Shown piece after piece: positions 3,229 through 54,980 of a stretch of DNA of 64,000 nucleotides. The position numbers and the translations under genes are program-made. Location of the stretch: NCBI RefSeq assembly GCF_003334355.1, contig NZ_QOWP01000017.1, one strand, 5' to 3'. The notes beneath the pieces are model-generated. The model was not told the DNA's origin. It worked only from the letters and a program-made list of their open reading frames with translations, and searched no databases. This stretch comes from Escherichia coli. Lineage in GTDB: Bacteria; Pseudomonadota; Gammaproteobacteria; Enterobacterales; Enterobacteriaceae. How positions within the stretch are numbered: the stretch's first letter is position 1; the number at the start of each line of letters is the position of its first letter.

Positions 3229-3348
3229 TTCCATCACCTGTCGGCATATTTTTAAGGGCTGATGCGTAATTCCTCAATGGAGCATCAGTGTTGATGGAAA
3301 CGAAGATAGACATTCATTTAATCAATAAAAGTGATCAAAACCACATCA

Positions 3349-3369
3349 ATTGAAACACTGTTTTATTTT
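3349..3369. promoter_or_regulatory. KdgR-operator-like palindrome upstream of kdgT
   Basis: aattgaaacactgttttattt resembles the KdgR box (AAATGAAACA..TGTTTCATTT-type) and sits in the kdgT 5' region. Confidence 0.4.
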
Positions 3370-3402
3370 TATCGGATCATTGTTTTTATTTTGAAATTGA
3401 TC

Positions 3403-3440
3403 ACAAAAAAACCACCGCCGTTGGCGATGGTTCATTTTTT
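3403..3440 (-). terminator. Rho-independent terminator downstream of sodA
   Basis: Minus-strand hairpin accatcgcc/ggcggtggt followed by a U-run, and preceded by an A-run, directly after the sodA stop. Confidence 0.6.
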
Positions 3441-3487
3441 AAGCTGATATGCGGCGTAAACGCCTCATTGCAGCAGGCGGCAAATGA

Positions 3488-4108
3488 TTATTTTTTCGCC
3501 GCGAAACGTGCCGCTGCTTCATCCCAGTTCACCACGTTCCAGAACTCTTTGATGTAGTCCGGACGGCGGTTCTGGAATTTCAGGTAGTAAGCATGTTCCC
3601 ACACATCCAGGCCCAGAATCGGGAAGCCGGAAGCGCCAGAAATAGCTTCACCCATCAGCGGAGAATCCTGGTTAGCAGTAGAAACCACCGCCAGTTTATC
3701 GCCTTTCAGCACCAGCCATGCCCAGCCGGAACCAAAGCGGGAAGCTGCCGCTTTTTCAAATTCTGCTTTGAAGTTATCAACGGAGCCGAAGTCACGTTCG
3801 ATAGCCGCTTTCAGGTCACCCTGCAGGGTGGTGCCTTTTTTCAGACCTTTCCAGAACAGGCTGTGGTTAGCGTGACCGCCAGCGTTGTTGCGCAGTACGG
3901 TTTTCTTGTCTGCTGGCAGCTGGTCCAGTTTGGTGATCAGCTCTTCAACCGGCAGGTTGGCAAATTCTGGCAGGCTTTCCAGCGCCGCGTTGGCGTTGTT
4001 TACGTAGGTCTGATGGTGTTTGGTGTGGTGGATTTCCATGGTCTGCTCATCGAAGTGCGGTTCCAGGGCATCGTAAGCATACGGCAGGGATGGCAGGGTA
4101 TAGCTCAT
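3488..4108 (-). CDS. sodA: Manganese superoxide dismutase
   Basis: 206 aa from [20 protein letters not shown]...; classic Mn/Fe-SOD sequence with metal ligands in DVWEHAYY. Confidence 0.95.
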
Positions 4109-4160
4109 ATTCATCTCCAGTATTGTCGGGCGGCCGATTGTTAATGCCGCGTAAGCAGTT

Positions 4161-4202
4161 GGTTCATTATAGTTAATTAAATGATATTGAAAATGATTAT
4201 CA
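4161..4202. promoter_or_regulatory. sodA promoter region with Fur-box-like AT-rich dyad
   Basis: Minus-strand gataatcattttcaatatcatttaattaac resembles the GATAATGATAATCATTATC Fur consensus; sodA is an established Fur target. Confidence 0.4.
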
Positions 4203-4392
4203 ATGCCGTACTTTTCGTAAGGGTATGGTTTTGCAGGAAAATGCCCGAGATGTGAAGCAAATCACCCACTTAATGCCGTGATTGCCAGTAAATCGACAAC
4301 GGCGGCAACAGGCGAAAGGTTAATCGACAGCACGATTTTTACACTCATCTCGTCGGAGATGTGAAGCGACGAAAAATGATGAGGATAAGAAG

Positions 4393-5427
4393 ATGAGTAA
4401 CGCGATTACGATGGGGATATTTTGGCATTTGATCGGCGCGGCCAGTGCAGCCTGTTTTTACGCTCCGTTCAAAAAAGTAAAAAAATGGTCATGGGAAACC
4501 ATGTGGTCAGTCGGTGGGATTGTTTCGTGGATTATTCTGCCGTGGGCCATCAGCGCCCTGTTACTACCGGATTTCTGGGCGTATTACAGCTCGTTTAGTC
4601 TCTCTACGCTGCTGCCTGTTTTTCTGTTCGGCGCTATGTGGGGGATCGGTAATATCAACTATGGCCTGACCATGCGTTATCTCGGCATGTCGATGGGAAT
4701 TGGCATCGCCATTGGCATTACGTTGATTGTCGGTACGCTGATGACGCCAATTATCAACGGCAATTTCGATGTGCTGATTAACACCGAAGGCGGACGCATG
4801 ACGTTGCTCGGCGTTCTGGTGGCGCTGATTGGCGTAGGGATTGTAACTCGCGCCGGGCAGTTGAAAGAGCGCAAGATGGGCATTAAAGCCGAAGAGTTCA
4901 ATCTGAAAAAAGGGCTGGTGCTGGCGGTGATGTGCGGCATTTTCTCTGCCGGGATGTCCTTTGCGATGAACGCCGCAAAACCGATGCATGAAGCCGCTGC
5001 CGCACTTGGCGTCGATCCACTGTATGTCGCTCTGCCAAGCTATGTCATCATCATGGGCGGCGGCGCGATCATCAACCTCGGTTTCTGTTTTATTCGTCTG
5101 GCAAAAGTGAAGGATTTGTCGCTAAAAGCCGACTTCTCGCTGGCAAAACCGCTGATCACTCACAATGTGTTACTCTCAGCACTGGGCGGGTTGATGTGGT
5201 ACCTGCAATTCTTTTTCTATGCCTGGGGCCACGCCCGCATTCCGGCGCAATATGACTACATCAGTTGGATGCTGCATATGAGCTTCTATGTATTGTGCGG
5301 CGGTATCGTCGGGCTGGTGCTGAAAGAGTGGAACAATGCAGGACGCCGTCCGGTAACGGTGTTGAGCCTCGGTTGTGTGGTGATTATTGTCGCCGCTAAC
5401 ATCGTCGGCATCGGCATGGCGAATTAA
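4393..5427 (+). CDS. rhaT: L-rhamnose-proton symporter
   Basis: 344-aa ORF, 10-TM-type hydrophobic protein, conserved position beside rhaR. Confidence 0.95.
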
Positions 5428-7182: not shown

Positions 7183-10195
<3,013 letters not shown>

Positions 10196-10200
10196 ACACT

Positions 10201-10424
10201 GCCGGATGCGGCGCGAGCGCCTTATCCGGCCTACGGGTCGGCAACAGTTGTAGGCCTGATAAGACGCGACAGCGTCGCATCAGGCATTGATTGCCGGATG
10301 CGGCACAAGTGCCTTATCCGGCCTACAGGTCGGCAATAGTTGTAGGCCTGATAAGACGCGACAGCGTCGCATCAGGCATTGATTGCCGGATGCGGCGCGA
10401 GCGCCTTATCCGGCCTACGGGTCG
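10201..10424. repeat. BIME cluster: about 2.4 tandem copies of a 92-bp unit, each holding two inverted REP palindromes
   Basis: Unit gccggatgcggcgcgagcgccttatccggcctacgggtcggcaacagttgtaggcctgataagacgcgacagcgtcgcatcaggcattgatt begins at 10201, 10293 and 10385. Confidence 0.9.
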
Positions 10425-10461
10425 TGCATCCGACAACACCGAATTTACAGGAACACAGAAC

Positions 10462-11286
10462 ATGCAAAACATTACTCAGTCCTGGTTTGTCCAGGGAATG
10501 ATCAAAGCCACCACCGACGCCTGGCTGAAAGGCTGGGATGAGCGCAACGGCGGCAACCTGACGCTACGCCTGGATGACGCCGATATCGCACCATATCACG
10601 ACAATTTCCACCAACAACCGCGCTATATCCCGCTCAGCCAGCCCATGCCTTTACTGGCAAATACACCGTTTATTGTCACCGGCTCGGGCAAATTCTTCCG
10701 TAACGTCCAGCTTGATCCTGCGGCTAACTTAGGCATCGTAAAAGTCGACAGCGACGGCGCGGGCTACCACATTCTTTGGGGGTTAACCAACGAAGCCGTC
10801 CCCACTTCCGAACTTCCGGCTCACTTCCTTTCCCACTGCGAGCGCATTAAAGCCACCAACGGCAAAGATCGGGTGATCATGCACTGCCACGCCACCAACC
10901 TGATCGCCCTCACCTATGTACTTGAAAACGACACCGCGGTCTTCACTCGCCAACTGTGGGAAGGCAGCACCGAGTGTCTGGTGGTATTCCCGGATGGCGT
11001 TGGCATTTTGCCGTGGATGGTGCCCGGCACGGACGAAATCGGCCAGGCGACCGCACAAGAGATGCAAAAACATTCGCTGGTGTTGTGGCCCTTCCACGGC
11101 GTCTTCGGCAGCGGACCGACGCTGGATGAAACCTTCGGTTTAATCGACACCGCAGAAAAATCAGCACAAGTATTAGTGAAGGTTTATTCGATGGGCGGCA
11201 TGAAACAGACCATCAGCCGTGAAGAGTTGATAGCGCTCGGCAAGCGTTTCGGCGTTACGCCACTCGCCAGTGCGCTGGCGCTGTAA
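10462..11286 (+). CDS. rhaD: Rhamnulose-1-phosphate aldolase
   Basis: 274 aa from [37 protein letters not shown]...; the longer track ORF starting at 10291 is an artefact running through the REP cluster. Confidence 0.95.
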
Positions 11287-11295
11287 GGAGCAAAC

Positions 11296-11610
11296 ATGAT
11301 CCGCAAAGCCTTTGTCATGCAGGTAAACCCCGACGCCCACGAAGAGTATCAGCGTCGGCATAATCCCATCTGGCCAGAACTGGAAGCAGTGCTGAAATCT
11401 CACGGTGCGCATAACTACGCCATCTATCTCGACAAAGCGCGTAATCTGCTGTTTGCCATGGTAGAGATTGAATCTGAAGAACGCTGGAATGCGGTTGCCA
11501 GCACTGATGTTTGCCAACGTTGGTGGAAATATATGACCGATGTTATGCCCGCTAACCCGGATAACAGCCCGGTGAGTCGCGAGCTGCAAGAAGTGTTTTA
11601 CCTGCCGTAA
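11296..11610 (+). CDS. rhaM: L-rhamnose mutarotase
   Basis: 104-aa ORF immediately after rhaD, matches RhaM (YiiL). Confidence 0.9.
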
Positions 11611-11618
11611 TTGCCCAA

Positions 11619-11650
11619 TGTGCCAGAGATGCCTCCGGCACAATATTTTA
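11619..11650 (+). terminator. Hairpin plus T-rich tail after rhaM
   Basis: tgtgccagagatgcctccggcaca (10-bp stem with one mismatch) followed by atatttta. Confidence 0.45.
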
Positions 11651-11910
11651 AATTTCGATTTGAAAAATTAAACATATTACATCTCCCGGTAAGTTATATT
11701 TCCCTGATACATTGTGAGTAAATCACAAAAATAATGAATAACCCATTAATGATTCATGTGGTTTATTTAAATAACCATTATGTGCATTACTCCGCAAATC
11801 TGACCTTTCACTCTGTCTCAAATTGTCATTGTTTACCGACATATCGCCTCTCATCACTTAATCGCTCCACCATTACAATTGATTAAAATATATTTTATGG
11901 AGTCCGATTA

Positions 11911-18911: not shown

Positions 18912-21900
18912 ATGCAGGTCAGCAGAAGGCAGTTCTTTAAGATCTGCGCTGGCGGTATGGCAGGCACCACGGCAGCGGCACTGGGTTTTGCACCCAGCGT
19001 AGCACTCGCGGAAACCCGGCAGTATAAACTGCTGCGCACCCGCGAAACCCGTAATACCTGCACCTATTGTTCCGTAGGCTGTGGGCTGTTGATGTACAGC
19101 CTCGGTGACGGAGCAAAAAACGCCAAAGCATCTATCTTCCATATCGAAGGCGATCCGGATCACCCGGTCAACCGCGGTGCACTTTGTCCGAAAGGCGCTG
19201 GCCTGGTGGATTTCATCCACTCCGAAAGCCGTCTGAAGTTTCCGGAATACCGTGCGCCAGGTTCTGATAAATGGCAGCAAATCAGTTGGGAAGAGGCGTT
19301 TGATCGCATCGCCAAACTGATGAAAGAAGACCGCGATGCTAACTACATTGCGCAAAACGCCGAAGGCGTGACTGTTAACCGCTGGCTCTCCACCGGGATG
19401 CTGTGTGCTTCCGCGTCGAGTAACGAAACCGGCTATTTAACGCAAAAATTCTCCCGCGCGCTGGGTATGCTCGCGGTCGACAACCAGGCGCGTGTCTGAC
19501 ACGGACCAACGGTAGCAAGTCTTGCTCCAACATTTGGTCGCGGTGCGATGACCAACCACTGGGTCGACATCAAGAACGCCAACCTCGTCGTGGTGATGGG
19601 CGGTAACGCCGCTGAAGCTCACCCGGTCGGGTTCCGCTGGGCGATGGAAGCCAAAATTCACAACGGCGCGAAGCTGATTGTGATCGATCCTCGCTTTACG
19701 CGTACGGCGGCGGTAGCTGACTACTATGCCCCTATTCGTTCCGGTACTGACATTGCTTTCCTGTCAGGCGTATTGCTGTACCTGCTGAACAATGAAAAAT
19801 TCAACCGCGAATACACCGAAGCCTATACCAACGCCAGCCTGATCGTGCGTGAGGATTACGGCTTTGAAGATGGCCTGTTCACCGGCTACGACGCGGAAAA
19901 ACGCAAGTACGATAAATCCTCCTGGACTTATGAACTGGACGAAAACGGCTTCGCCAAACGCGATACCACGCTGCAACATCCGCGCTGCGTGTGGAACTTG
20001 CTGAAACAGCACGTTTCCCGCTACACGCCAGATGTGGTTGAAAACATCTGTGGTACGCCAAAAGACGCGTTCCTGAAAGTCTGCGAATACATCGCAGAAA
20101 CCAGTGCTCACGATAAAACTGCCTCGTTCCTGTATGCCCTCGGCTGGACGCAACACTCCGTTGGTGCGCAAAACATTCGTACGATGGCGATGATCCAGCT
20201 GCTGCTCGGCAATATGGGGATGGCAGGCGGCGGCGTTAACGCCCTGCGCGGTCACTCCAATATTCAGGGGCTGACGGACCTGGGGCTGCTGTCGCAGAGC
20301 CTGCCAGGTTACATGACGCTGCCAAGCGAGAAGCAGACCGATCTGCAAACCTACCTTACCGCCAACACGCCAAAACCGCTGCTGGAAGGCCAGGTAAACT
20401 ACTGGGGCAACTACCCGAAATTCTTCGTCTCTATGATGAAGGCCTTCTTTGGTGATAAAGCGACGGCGGAAAATAGCTGGGGCTTTGACTGGTTGCCGAA
20501 GTGGGATAAAGGCTACGACGTCCTGCAATACTTCGAGATGATGAAAGAGGGCAAGGTCAATGGCTATATCTGCCAGGGCTTTAACCCTGTTGCCTCATTC
20601 CCGAACAAAAACAAAGTGATCGGTTGTCTGTCGAAACTGAAGTTCCTCGTCACCATCGACCCACTGAACACTGAAACCTCTAACTTCTGGCAGAACCACG
20701 GTGAGCTGAACGAAGTTGACTCGTCGAAGATCCAGACCGAAGTGTTCCGTCTGCCATCGACCTGCTTCGCGGAAGAGAACGGTTCTATCGTTAACTCAGG
20801 TCGCTGGTTACAGTGGCACTGGAAAGGTGCGGACGCCCCGGGGATTGCGCTGACTGACGGCGAGATCCTCTCCGGTATCTTCCTGCGCTTGCGCAAGATG
20901 TATGCCGAACAGGGTGGCGCGAACCCGGACCAGGTGCTGAACATGACATGGAACTACGCCATTCCGCATGAGCCATCTTCAGAAGAAGTGGCGATGGAGA
21001 GCAACGGTAAGGCGCTGGCCGATATTACCGATCCGGCAACCGGTGCGGTTATCGTCAAGAAAGGCCAACAACTTAGTTCGTTCGCCCAATTGCGCGATGA
21101 CGGTACAACCTCCTGTGGCTGCTGGATTTTCGCCGGTAGCTGGACGCCGGAAGGCAACCAGATGGCACGCCGTGATAACGCCGATCCGTCTGGCCTCGGT
21201 AACACGCTGGGCTGGGCATGGGCATGGCCGCTTAACCGCCGCATTCTGTATAACCGCGCCTCCGCAGATCCGCAGGGTAACCCGTGGGATCCGAAGCGTC
21301 AGTTGCTGAAATGGGACGGCACTAAGTGGACCGGCTGGGATATTCCGGACTACAGCGCAGCGCCTCCGGGTAGCGGCGTCGGGCCGTTTATCATGCAGCA
21401 GGAAGGCATGGGGCGTCTGTTTGCCCTCGATAAGATGGCGGAAGGTCCGTTCCCGGAACACTACGAGCCGTTTGAAACGCCGCTGGGAACTAACCCGCTG
21501 CATCCAAACGTTATCTCGAACCCGGCTGCACGTATCTTTAAAGACGACGCCGAAGCATTGGGTAAAGCCGATAAGTTCCCGTATGTCGGAACCACCTATC
21601 GTCTGACCGAGCACTTCCACTACTGGACCAAACACGCGCTGTTGAACGCGATTTTGCAGCCAGAGCAGTTTGTGGAAATCGGGGAGTCGCTGGCGAATAA
21701 ACTTGGCATTGCCCAGGGCGATACCGTGAAAGTCTCCTCCAACCGTGGCTATATCAAAGCCAAAGCGGTGGTGACCAAACGTATTCGCACGCTGAAAGCG
21801 AACGGCAAAGATATCGATACCATCGGTATTCCGATTCACTGGGGCTATGAAGGCGTAGCTAAAAAAGGCTTTATTGCCAATACTTTAACGCCATTCGTTG

Positions 21901-24616: not shown

Positions 24617-24715
24617 GCCTGATGCGCTGCGCTTATCAGGCCTACCAATAAACTGCAATACATTGAATTTATACGACTTTGTAGGCCGGATAAGGCGTTC
24701 ACGCCGCATCCGGCA
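24617..24715. repeat. REP/BIME pair downstream of fdhE
   Basis: gcctgatgcgctgcgcttatcaggcctac and inverted gtaggccggataaggcgttcacgccgcatccggca. Confidence 0.8.
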
Positions 24716-41138: not shown

Positions 41139-41216
<78 letters not shown>

Positions 41217-44286: not shown

Positions 44287-44452
44287 TGTTTAATCCTTTT
44301 GGTTTAAACCAGATGAAGCATCTTACGCTTACGCCAAAAAAGAAAGCAATTAACGGTGTATGACTTTGCAGATAATTGTGACAAAGCTCTCTATTGACGT
44401 AATCACAGACTTATAAGGGAGATACTCGCATTGGTGTGCGCTCACGACAGGT

Positions 44453-44485
44453 AAAAAAAAACCTGCCAGCGATGGCAGGTTTTTT
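44453..44485 (-). terminator. Rho-independent terminator of typA (symmetrical A/T tracts, possibly bidirectional)
   Basis: aaaaaaaaa cctgccagcgatggcagg tttttt. Confidence 0.7.
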
Positions 44486-44502
44486 ATAACTAAAAAACGA
44501 AA

Positions 44503-46326
44503 TTAATCGTCTTTCGGTGCGCGGTTAGCGCGACGACGATCGTTTTCCGTCAGGTGACGTTTACGAATACGGATAGAGGTTGGAGTCACTTCTACCAGTT
44601 CGTCATCATCGATGAACTCCAGAGCTTGTTCCAGAGTCATGCGGATAGGCGGAACCAGAACAACGGCTTCGTCAGTACCGGAAGCACGCATGTTGGTCAG
44701 TTTCTTACCGGTCAGGCAGTTTACCGTCAGGTCGTTAGAGCGGCTATGAATACCGATAATCTGACCTTCGTAAACTTCTGCACCGTGACCGAGGAACAGC
44801 TTACCGCGATCCTGCAGACCGAACAGCGCGAACGCGACCGCTTTACCCTGACCGTTAGAGATCAGTACGCCGTTCTGACGCTGGCCCACTTCACCCGGAC
44901 GTACGTCGTCGTAGTGGCTGAAGGTGGAGTACAGCAGACCAGTACCGGAAGTCATGGTCATGAACTCAGAACGGAAGCCAATCAGACCACGGCTTGGGAT
45001 CACGTAGTCGAGACGTACGCGGCCTTTACCGTCTGGATTCATGTTTTTCAGGTCGCCTTTACGTTCGCCCAGCGCCTGCATCACAGAACCCTGATGCTGT
45101 TCTTCAACGTCCAGCGTCACGTTTTCATACGGCTCTTGTTTACGACCGTCGATTTCACGGAAGATTACTTTCGGACGGGATACCGCCAGTTCGAAACCTT
45201 CACGACGCATGTTTTCGATCAGAACAGACAGGTGCAGTTCGCCACGACCAGAAACGCGGAACGCATCGGCGTCTTCGGTTTCTTCTACGCGCAGCGCAAC
45301 GTTGTGTACCAGTTCTTTGTTCAGACGATCCAGGATCTGACGAGACGTTACGAACTTACCTTCTTTACCGCAGAACGGCGAGGTGTTAACGCAGAAGAAC
45401 ATAGAAACGGTCGGCTCATCAACGGAGAGTGCCGGCAGCGCTTCAACGTTTTGCGTGTCGCAAACGGTGTCAGAAATGTTCAGTTCGCCCAGGCCCGTGA
45501 TCGCCACGATATCGCCAGCTTCCGCCAGGTCGGTTTCGATACGTTCCAGACCGAGGTGGCCCAGCACTTTACCGACTTTCGCGTTGCGGGTTTTGCCTTC
45601 GCTATCGATGATAGTGACCTGCTGGTTCGGCTTCACTTTACCGCGCTTGATGCGGCCAATGCCGATAACGCCAACATAGCTGTTGTAATCGAGCTGAGAA
45701 ATCTGCATCTGGAACGGACCGTCAAGGTCAACGTCCGGCGCAGGAACGTGGTCAACAATCGCCTGGTACAGCGGGGTCATGTCTTCCGCCATATCTTCGT
45801 GGTCCAGACCCGCGATACCGTTCAGCGCAGAAGCGTAAACGATCGGGAAGTCCAGCTGCTCGTCGGTCGCGTCGAGGTTAACGAACAGATCGAATACCTG
45901 ATCCACAACCCAATCAGGACGCGCGCCAGGGCGGTCAACTTTGTTGATAACAACAATCGGCTTCAGGCCGTAAGCAAACGCTTTTTTGGTTACGAAGCGC
46001 GTTTGCGGCATCGGGCCGTCAAATGCGTCAACCACCAGCAGCACTGAGTCTACCATGGACATTACACGTTCAACTTCACCACCGAAGTCGGCGTGCCCCG
46101 GGGTATCAACGATGTTGATACGGTAATCATTCCATTTGATAGCGGTGTTTTTCGCGAGGATGGTAATCCCACGCTCTTTCTCCAAATCGTTGGAGTCCAT
46201 CACGCGCTCTTGGGTTTCGGCACGAGAGTCGAACGTACCGGATTGTTGGAGCAGCTTGTCTACCAGGGTGGTTTTACCATGGTCTACGTGCGCGATGATG
46301 GCGATATTACGCAATTTTTCGATCAC
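44503..46326 (-). CDS. typA: Ribosome-associated translational GTPase TypA/BipA
   Basis: 607 aa; G-motifs [18 protein letters not shown]. Confidence 0.95.
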
Positions 46327-46469
46327 AACTTTGCCTCAGGCATTAGAAATAGCGCGTTATTGTACACGGATTAATCGCACTACAAAACAGGATCACAAAC
46401 ATCCTCCGCAAACAAGTATTGCAGAGTCCCTTTGTGATCGCTTTCACGGAGCATAAAAAGGGTTATCCA

Positions 46470-46620
46470 AAGGTCATTGCACCAACATGGTGCTTAATGT
46501 TTCCATTGAAGCACTATATTGGTGCAACATTCACATCGTGGTGCAGCCCTTTTGCACGATGGTGCGCATGATAACGCCTTTTAGGGGCAATTTAAAAGTT
46601 GGCACAGATTTCGCTTTATC
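46470..46620 (+). promoter_or_regulatory. glnA control region: NtrC binding sites and sigma-54 promoter glnAp2
   Basis: NtrC-type dyads ttgcaccaacatggtgct, ttggtgcaacattcacatcgtggtgcagcc, ttgcacgatggtgcgcat; sigma-54 -24/-12 element tggcacagatttcgct at 46600..46615. Confidence 0.85.
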
Positions 46621-51099: not shown

Positions 51100-51203
51100 T
51101 GCCGGATGCGGAGAAAGTCGTAGGCCTGATAAGACGCGACCAGCGCCGCATCAGGCACCATGCTCAGATGCCTGATGCGGCGTAAACGCCTTATCCGGCC
51201 TAC
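51100..51203. repeat. REP/BIME cluster (three REP palindromes) between yshB and hemN
   Basis: gccggatgcggagaaagtcgtaggcctgataagacgcgaccagcgccgcatcaggca...gatgcctgatgcggcgtaaacgccttatccggcctac. Confidence 0.8.
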
Positions 51204-51314
51204 AAAAGCAATAATTTCAACAGGTTTTGTTGCCCAGCGCATCAGGCAATCTTGTTCTCAGCACATTGATGGCGCTTTCGTTTTCTACTTTGTAAACGAA
51301 GCGCCATTCACTAT

Positions 51315-53386: not shown

Positions 53387-53452
53387 AATGGTTCGTCTTT
53401 TAGCCGTTTTATTCAGTATAGATTTGCGGCGGAATCTAACAGAAAGCAAGCA

Positions 53453-53697
53453 AAGAAAAAAGGCGACAGATTACTCTGTCGCCTTTTTTCCTGACTCATA
53501 ACCCTTAACGGGTCTTACAATCCTTGCAGGCCGCCAACACACCCTGTTTTTCCTTTAGCCGGAACAATCCGTGTTGATTCCATTTCCGTTTAATTACGTC
53601 TCCGGACGTTTGTCTTCCTGACAATCCTCTGTCTTCGCCTCCTGGCGCTCCTGACCCTCATCCTGAGTCATTGTTCCTGTTAGCGTCCTCGCTCTAT
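53453..53697 (-). ncRNA. csrC: CsrC small RNA (CsrA-sequestering)
   Basis: Minus-strand sequence begins atagagcgaggacgctaacaggaacaatgactcaggatgagggtcaggagcgccaggaggcgaagacagaggattgtcaggaagac..., has multiple GGA motifs and ends in terminator ggcgacagagtaatctgtcgcc plus U-run; matches CsrC as I recall it. Confidence 0.9.
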
Positions 53698-54725: not shown

Positions 54726-54834
54726 TAAAAAACGCCCCAGTCATTACTGACTGGGGCGGCTAAAATATTCAGCCAAATCCGATTACGTGAAGTAAAAGGT
54801 CTGAAAGATAGAACATCTTACCTCTGTACCCTAC
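54726..54834 (-). ncRNA. spf: Spot 42 small RNA
   Basis: Minus strand reads gtagggtacagaggtaagatgttctatctttcagaccttttacttcacgtaatcggatttggctgaatattttagccgccccagtcagtaatgactggggcgtttttta, the 109-nt Spot 42 sequence as I recall it, including its terminator. Confidence 0.92.
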
Positions 54835-54980
54835 GCGACTAACTTTACTCTTTTTTGTTCAGTTCAGAAAGCACTTTTTGTAATTTTTTTTCAGTTGTTG
54901 CATAGGAATTTCTAATAGCCATCACAAAACGTGACAGCTTATGTTGCTTACTTACGAAAAAAGGCATGTTCAGGCGAATC

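Follow-up and report, generated by a model that had tools for sequence, protein, structure and literature searches.

A 92-bp repeat between rhaA and rhaD in the 64,000-nt stretch of Escherichia coli DNA analysed here (the window) forms an array of five palindromes in alternating orientation, and we are all but sure that this array is a BIME-2, namely a five-REP, strain-specific allele of the K-12 element REP299a-i. The element, its class, its variability and its cleavage by DNA gyrase are already known and catalogued. The complete account that we favour, in which this identity is joined to regulation at the RNA level, seems to us reasonably probable.

Structure and identity of the array

The 92-bp repeat described in a first-pass annotation of the window is real, since Tandem Repeats Finder and our own repeat search agree. 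The former returned a single array at 10200–10424 (period 92, 2.4 copies, 93% matches, 0% indels, score 415); the latter found three in-register copies that start, as the annotation had it, at 10201, 10293 and 10385 (spacing 92 and 92), and homology stops at 10424, where the end of the repeat had been placed. The "few substitutions" between copies come down to 5 of 92 positions for unit 1 against unit 2 (10213, 10215, 10218, 10235 and 10245 versus 10305, 10307, 10310, 10327 and 10337). All five differences are G:C-to-A:T transitions, and two of them are both sides of one Y-stem base pair. The partial third copy (10385–10424, 40 nt) equals unit 1 exactly. Chance alone is very far from explaining a 92-nt repeat at ~95% identity.

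Each unit holds two inverted REP palindromes, as had also been described: a Y REP, a 15-nt tail-to-tail linker, an inverted Z2 REP and a 7-nt head-to-head linker. The array reads Y-Z2-Y-Z2-Y, in the orientation + - + - +. The 266-bp spacer between rhaA and rhaD is composed as follows.

10196–10200, + strand: gap ACACT, 5 nt, from the rhaA stop to the base of the first REP stem; the same in 10 of 10 alleles inspected
10201–10234, + strand: Y REP no. 1, GCCGGATGCGGCGCGAGCGCCTTATCCGGCCTAC, with its CTAC foot 3′ on the + strand; RNA hairpin of −21.3 kcal/mol
10235–10249, + strand: tail-to-tail linker, 15 nt, GGGTCGGCAACAGTT
10250–10285, + strand: Z2 REP no. 2, inverted with respect to Y, with its GTAG foot 5′ on the + strand; RNA hairpin of −21.9 kcal/mol
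10286–10292, + strand: head-to-head (S-type) linker ATTGATT, 7 nt
10293–10326, + strand: Y REP no. 3, a variant with upper stem GCACAAGTGC, having an A-T pair where REPs 1 and 5 have G-C; hairpin of −20.0 kcal/mol
10327–10341, + strand: tail-to-tail linker, 15 nt, AGGTCGGCAATAGTT
10342–10377, + strand: Z2 REP no. 4, of the same sequence as Z2 REP no. 2
10378–10384, + strand: head-to-head linker ATTGATT
10385–10418, + strand: terminal Y REP no. 5, of the same sequence as Y REP no. 1; present in every allele, the zero-unit allele included
10419–10461, + strand: unique 43-nt rhaD leader with Shine-Dalgarno AGGA at 10449–10452; its last ~30 nt, which take in the Shine-Dalgarno, are predicted to be unpaired

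The first-pass annotation had spoken of a BIME array, which is correct and can be made more exact. In the definition of Ton-Hoang et al. (PMC3333891), a BIME-2 combines y and z2 REPs, is repeated several times in tandem with a short S linker, and differs in copy number from strain to strain. The array in the window comprises three Y REPs (GCCGGATGCGGC..GCCTTATCCGGCCTAC) and two Z2 REPs (GTAGGCCTGATAAGACGCGACAGCGTCGCATCAGGC) that alternate in inverted orientation, each ending in CTAC or starting with GTAG. Its 2.4 tandem units are joined by the 7-nt head-to-head linker, with no IHF consensus in the array, and between 0 and 5 full units occur among the genomes sampled (see below). The palindromes are imperfect, the predicted folds showing a 1x1 interruption in the Y stem and a 2x2 internal loop in Z2, and the insertion sequences IS1397 and IS621 have each been found in a Z2 REP of this array. 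We assigned the Y and Z2 types with what we take to be the consensus sequences of Bachellier and Gilson. The typing is independently backed by the listing of the K-12 allele under "BIMEs2" and by 77-bit matches to the naRNA4 model; this model was built from a REP325 pair, and REP325, once extracted, proved to be composed of Y and Z2 REPs.

The K-12 element at this locus, inside the rhaBAD operon, is REP299a-i (2024 preprint; EcoCyc name), and REP299 is predicted by RAREFAN to be RAYT-associated (same preprint). The RefSeq record of MG1655 annotates no REP feature at rhaA-rhaD, and the name REP299 is taken from the preprint. We counted nine REPs in the sequence of the K-12 allele, which agrees with the "a-i" of its name.

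Other REPs are scattered over the window. A head-to-head pair lies at 1331–1408 (78.6 bits with the naRNA4 model, + strand), a pair at 24617–24714 consists of a short REP that we read as Z1-type and a Y REP (BIME-1-like), about four REPs are clustered at 51101–51247, and single REPs occur at 41140, 48178, 54700 and 63869.

Genes flanking the array

The array had been placed between two genes of rhaBAD, and NCBIfam models and RefSeq annotation bear this out, rhaA ending at 10195 and rhaD starting at 10462.

7470–8939: rhaB (NCBIfam equivalog; RefSeq annotation)
8936–10195, + strand: rhaA (L-rhamnose isomerase), stop TAA at 10193–10195 (NCBIfam TIGR01748/NF002203 equivalogs, E ~1e-245)
10462–11286, + strand: rhaD (rhamnulose-1-phosphate aldolase; NCBIfam equivalog; RefSeq annotation)
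11296–11610: rhaM, 3′ of rhaD (NCBIfam equivalog; RefSeq annotation)

The divergent rhaS is located upstream of rhaB. All the rha genes match NCBIfam equivalog models far over the cut-offs, and the locus is 100% identical to that of E. coli strain H2, for which the RefSeq annotation names the same genes. No sigma-70-like promoter was found in 9800–11800, and so none between rhaA and rhaD. The rhamnose-induced rhaBAD(M) transcript, we infer, runs through the array.

Two further readings of the repeat were rejected. It is not a coding repeat: the ORF at 10291–11286 (TTG, 331 aa) is rhaD extended upstream through the array, and the period of 92 bp is not a multiple of 3, hence no repeated peptide results; this TTG ORF and a minus-strand ORF at 10002–10280 (92 aa) are artefacts of the stop-free repeat rather than genes. 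Nor is it a CRISPR-like array, because the linkers between the palindromes are themselves repeated, which leaves no unique spacers. Unrelated gathering-level Rfam matches elsewhere in the window are to CsrC (53444–53697, −), Spot 42 (54726–54844, −), ES222 (46408–46515, −), SECIS_3 (19494–19552, +) and STnc370 (44450–44518, −).

Unit number varies among E. coli genomes

We measured the distance from the end of rhaA to the rhaD leader with flank-only queries in two spread samples of complete E. coli genomes. Each query gave 59 usable results with few overlaps, that is, ~118 genomes among 5,426, and the frequencies given here are those of the samples. The first-pass annotation had described such arrays as hotspots of copy-number variation and had proposed comparing copy number across E. 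coli genomes; the junction is indeed an allelic series of 45 + 92n bp with n = 0–5, every member of which has 0, 1, 2, 3, 4 or 5 full units plus the terminal Y REP. The alleles were distributed as follows.

0 units: 23 of ~118 genomes
1 unit: 21 of ~118 genomes
2 units (the allele of the window): 19 of ~118 genomes
3 units: 6 of ~118 genomes
4 units (K-12, Nissle, CFT073): 31 of ~118 genomes
5 units: 1 of ~118 genomes
Single Y REP followed by a different GC-rich palindromic repeat: 17 of ~118 genomes (~14%)
Junction split by an insertion sequence: 2 of ~118 genomes

Representative alleles are anchored identically at both ends, and the internal unit number alone varies. One flank class of 99.5% identity holds genomes with 0, 2, 3 or 4 units, from which changes in copy number seem to outpace substitutions in the flanks. 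Clones such as O157:H7 do not vary, their genomes having 1 unit (three REPs); BL21-type strains likewise have three REPs, and ST131 has five. When alleles are compared, the Z2 REP (22/22 copies) and the head-to-head linker ATTGATT (23/23 copies) are invariant, and variation is found in the Y upper stem and the tail-to-tail linker. The Y variants at most suggest a compensatory path, plausible as such, from G-C over an A.C mismatch to A-T: it concerns one compensated pair (Y REP positions 13–18), the A.C intermediate is seen in 6 of 33 copies, and a score at least as high arises in 141 of 500 shuffles.

The array belongs to a multi-locus repeat family, and its 92-bp units are gained and lost in register between strains. 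Copy number may change by slippage or by unequal recombination between the 92-bp direct repeats, possibly aided by a REP-associated transposase.

In Nissle 1917, UPEC129, CFT073 and H88, the rhaD leader 3′ of the terminal Y REP is diverged and 10 nt longer (..GTACATCCGGCAACAGGCACGGACGTCCAATTAACAGGAAC..). Nissle 1917, UPEC129 and CFT073-like strains belong to phylogroup B2. In 63 of the 5,426 complete E. coli genomes the rhaA/rhaD flank query had no match; laboratory strains of the BW25113 lineage, in which rhaD-rhaB is deleted, are presumably among them.

Insertion sequences and an alternative occupant of the junction

IS1397 and IS621 are documented as REP-specific insertion sequences, and the array is a target of both. 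In strain Z1323HEC0300 (NZ_CP148366.1), IS1397 has entered the apical loop of a Z2 REP and is accompanied by a GACA duplication, and in strain WP2-W18-ESBL-08 (NZ_AP021933.1), the IS110-family element IS621 sits in a Z2 REP at GTAG^GCC. The insert of Z1323HEC0300, an IS3 element of the IS1397 family flanked by the 4-bp duplication, occupies 3681–5392 of the extracted locus and sets rhaA and rhaD 1.7 kb apart; it is probably polar on rhaD. In WP2-W18-ESBL-08, IS621 lies between GTAG and GCCTGA, at 3301–4855 of the extracted locus.

The alternative allele has a single Y REP and then a GC-rich palindromic repeat of ~175 bp (CCCTCACCCC..CCCTCTCCC..GGGAGAGGGTTAGGGTGAGGGG), exemplified by E. coli 2014C-3599 (241–481 of the extracted locus); a similar element was seen in six further extracted spacers. 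This repeat is present at full length in 941 of the 5,426 E. coli genomes, its core occurring at a median of three places per genome, and it resembles what we take to be "box C". In Enterobacter, Pseudocitrobacter and Phytobacter, too, the rhaA-rhaD junction is occupied by a GC-rich element of this kind.

The junction in other species

Species-representative genomes were scanned with a degenerate pattern for a RhaD motif of 10 residues, which gave 120 loci, and the rhaA-rhaD spacer was measured in those having both genes. It is mostly 0–25 nt in Yersinia, Serratia, Pantoea, Erwinia, Pectobacterium, Dickeya, Hafnia, Pasteurellaceae, alpha-proteobacteria and Firmicutes. Outside the Enterobacteriaceae proper the gap is often 4–13 nt, with four Rahnella/Rouxiella spacers reaching 49–88 nt and being weakly structured. 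That the two genes are 0–25 nt apart outside this family suggests that translational coupling is ancestral and was lost when the junction opened.

Within the Enterobacteriaceae proper, the spacer measures 35–466 nt and is usually strongly structured; the two exceptions are a Pluralibacter MAG (15 nt) and Mangrovibacter (9 nt), and in a few Enterobacter genomes the spacer is short, at 35–43 nt, and unstructured. The occupants differ between genera. Citrobacter carries a REP pair, Pluralibacter and Pseudescherichia carry GCCCGG-type REP pairs, and the GC-rich CCCTCTCCC/GGGAGAGGG element is found in Enterobacter, Pseudocitrobacter, Phytobacter, Kosakonia and Buttiauxella. In Superficieibacter electus, the 466-nt spacer contains a tandem array of a different REP type (49-bp period, 8.2 copies; 3298–3702 of the extracted locus), apparently the product of a separate expansion at this site. 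The rhaA-rhaD junction has thus been colonised repeatedly by unrelated repeat families within the Enterobacteriaceae, a pattern compatible both with a permissive site and with selection in favour of a structured spacer.

Cleavage by DNA gyrase

BIME-2 elements are reportedly strong gyrase sites, as Espeli and Boccard are said to have found in 1997. A role as gyrase site was among the functions put forward in the first-pass annotation, and published data for the K-12 allele support it. The genome-wide gyrase map of Sutormin et al. (2019) lists "BIMEs2 ... 401 bp rhaA>-rhaD>", and their Topo-Seq counts of cleavage sites at K-12 rhaA-rhaD are 4 with ciprofloxacin (Cfx), 2 with rifampicin plus ciprofloxacin (RifCfx), 1 with microcin B17 and 0 with oxolinic acid, four poison conditions that all refer to the K-12 allele and not to the five-REP allele. 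In that study, gyrase cuts mainly the y-type REPs, in a subset only of BIME-2 elements, and independently of transcription. The K-12 allele belongs to the elements that are cleaved in vivo, and its cleavage persists with rifampicin, that is, even with transcription blocked.

Predicted RNA structure and effects on the rhaBAD mRNA

RNA folding in the mRNA sense predicts single REP hairpins of −20 to −22 kcal/mol, and adjacent Y and Z2 REPs can pair into long hairpins of −47 to −55 kcal/mol. The MFE of the spacer RNA is −141.9 kcal/mol over 285 nt (z = −8.1), and the ribosome-binding region of rhaD is predicted to be unpaired. The sense transcript is therefore predicted to carry stable stem-loops between two co-transcribed genes, as would befit an attenuator or the mRNA stabiliser that the first-pass annotation had in mind. 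The first paired base of the first REP stem, 10201, is 5 nt after the rhaA TAA and so within 15 nt of it; REP299 is likewise listed within the 15-nt limit from the upstream stop (2024 preprint). The base composition of the spacer (C 0.289, G 0.305) is not C-rich, which is unfavourable for Rho loading.

For REP325, Harris et al. (2026, preprint) described stabilisation of the upstream mRNA, an 8-10 fold cut in downstream expression, a ladder of truncated transcripts and a partial Rho dependence that is confined to the full array. Genome-wide, they found a raised upstream/downstream ratio in REP-containing tandem gene pairs; they also report that REP effects are context dependent, with no general link to longer mRNA half-lives.

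With its very stable hairpins and no U-tract, the array most likely acts as a local, 3′-UTR-like regulator. It would block 3′-to-5′ exonucleases and so protect the upstream rhaBA segment, and, by leaky and in part Rho-dependent attenuation, it would reduce the transcription that continues into rhaD-rhaM. Ribosomes finishing RhaA might also be hindered, the first stem being only 5 nt after the rhaA stop. The analogy with REP325, the hairpin energies and the 5-nt stop distance together lead us to expect protection of rhaBA, attenuation before rhaD and interference with RhaA termination, and on these grounds we lean slightly towards an RNA-level effect of the array on the rhaBAD transcript. Against such an effect speak the context dependence of REP action, the base composition of the spacer, the opposite orientation and different linkers of REP325, and the existence of successful lineages with 1 to 11 REPs, which implies that copy number is not tightly constrained. 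In the literature, including the supplements of Harris 2026 and of Dar and Sorek 2018, we found no measurements of rhaA versus rhaD mRNA or protein for any allele.

The array could instead be a passenger, a selfish or domesticated REPIN/BIME cluster that drifts neutrally in a permissive spacer and has no meaningful effect on the rhamnose genes, its activity being confined to the DNA as a gyrase site, an insertion-sequence target and a recombination substrate. We hold this to be somewhat unlikely. Widespread lineages do carry anything from 0 to 5 units and differ even inside the 99.5%-identical flank class, some Enterobacter manage with an unstructured spacer of 35–43 nt, and gyrase cleavage, which persists with rifampicin, was measured without rhamnose; the lack of a general association between REPs and longer half-life points the same way. 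That at least one REP is kept in all alleles would be expected of a passenger anyway, since in-register recombination cannot delete the last copy. However, a transcribed spacer whose hairpins amount to −20 to −55 kcal/mol and begin 5 nt after a stop codon is unlikely to be inert, the effects of REP325, the analogue studied inside an operon, are large, and in the Enterobacteriaceae this junction has time and again been occupied by structured repeats of unrelated kinds.

If the array does regulate at the RNA level, unit number might in addition be a heritable rheostat that tunes rhaBA protection against rhaD-rhaM read-through, and with it the RhaA:RhaD stoichiometry, between lineages. We regard this extension as quite doubtful. 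It would involve a series of 1, 3, 5, 7, 9 and 11 REPs, with Rho-dependent attenuation in the long alleles only, as with REP325. Were the rheostat real, the repeated filling of the junction in Enterobacteriaceae would reflect selection for an RNA decoupler there.

The naRNA4 and BIME-1 readings

The Rfam model naRNA4 (RF02564) matches 10253–10323 and 10345–10415 on the minus strand with 77.0 and 76.6 bits, above the gathering score of 59.5, which could mean that the array encodes naRNA4-like nucleoid-associated RNAs that, with HU, condense the chromosome by bridging REP cruciforms. We find this very improbable. The matches above threshold are antisense to rhaBAD, and on the sense strand the same pairs reach 56.5 and 53.2 bits, under 59.5. 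Moreover, the model matches every head-to-head REP pair in the window, including those at 1331–1408 and 51123–51200, and hence behaves as a detector of the repeat family rather than as evidence for a small-RNA gene; we rejected a specific naRNA4 gene on both counts. Harris et al. (2026) saw neither compaction of the nucleoid nor contacts between REPs that could be ascribed to REP325/naRNA4, which leaves the earlier naRNA4/HU model of chromosome compaction unsupported.

We give next to no credence to the array being a BIME-1 (RIB/RIP-type) element that binds IHF, or else an intrinsic terminator between rhaBA and rhaD, a reading prompted by the IHF binding offered as an option in the first-pass annotation and by descriptions of REPs as terminators in some contexts (PMC3333891), and refuted at the level of the sequence: the IHF site is a property of the long L linker of BIME-1 (PMC3333891) and the option does not apply here, as the REPs are Y and Z2 with no Z1, the head-to-head linker has 7 nt instead of being a long L linker, the IHF consensus WATCAANNNNTTR has no match in or near the array (the sole match in the window is at 60357), and 9800–11800 contains no hairpin followed by a T-run and 0 terminator-like (Rho-independent) sites.

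Significance and comparison with known REP systems

As a discovery the array carries little weight, since EcoCyc and the literature already cover the element and its class as well as its variability and cleavage by gyrase; its practical worth is as a test bed. It offers a natural in-register series of 0-5 units at one intra-operon site behind a cleanly inducible promoter, and with this allelic series one could gauge how REP number sets the protection of the mRNA, attenuation and the termination of translation. Strain differences in the array also deserve attention when rhaBAD-derived parts or rha-locus integrations are moved among K-12, B and wild strains.

The array resembles REP325 (yjdM-yjdN, the source of naRNA4) in being an alternating tandem array of Y and Z2 REPs between two co-transcribed genes. 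REP325, as extracted from K-12, differs in having a 100-bp period, 12 REPs and linkers of 13 nt (head-to-head) and 17 nt (tail-to-tail), and in its orientation with respect to the transcript, which is opposite to that of the rhaA-rhaD array. Its first REP begins ~15 nt after the stop codon, whereas that of the rhaA-rhaD array begins after 5 nt.

The REPs of malE-malF are said, after work by Newbury et al. in 1987, to form a barrier to 3′-exonucleases and to raise expression of the upstream gene. They too lie between genes of one operon, but malE-malF has a single REP pair and rhaA-rhaD a tandem array, for which a stabiliser role is put forward by analogy. The source on REP-specific insertion sequences cites decay intermediates of malE-malF. 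As summarised in the 2024 preprint, Liang, Rudd and Deutscher (2015) reported that a REP within 15 nt of a stop codon down-regulates translation of the upstream gene in a tmRNA-dependent manner. With its stem base 5 nt after TAA, the rhaA-rhaD array is within this distance. To our knowledge, RhaA was not among the genes tested by those authors.

The closest relative is REP299a-i itself, which occupies the same locus and is built of the same 92-bp unit. On the left, both alleles have TAA, ACACT and a Y REP, and on the right, the terminal Y REP and the 43-nt leader. The K-12 element has nine REPs in a 450-bp spacer, compared with five REPs in 266 bp in the window, so that the window allele corresponds to the K-12 allele minus two internal units.
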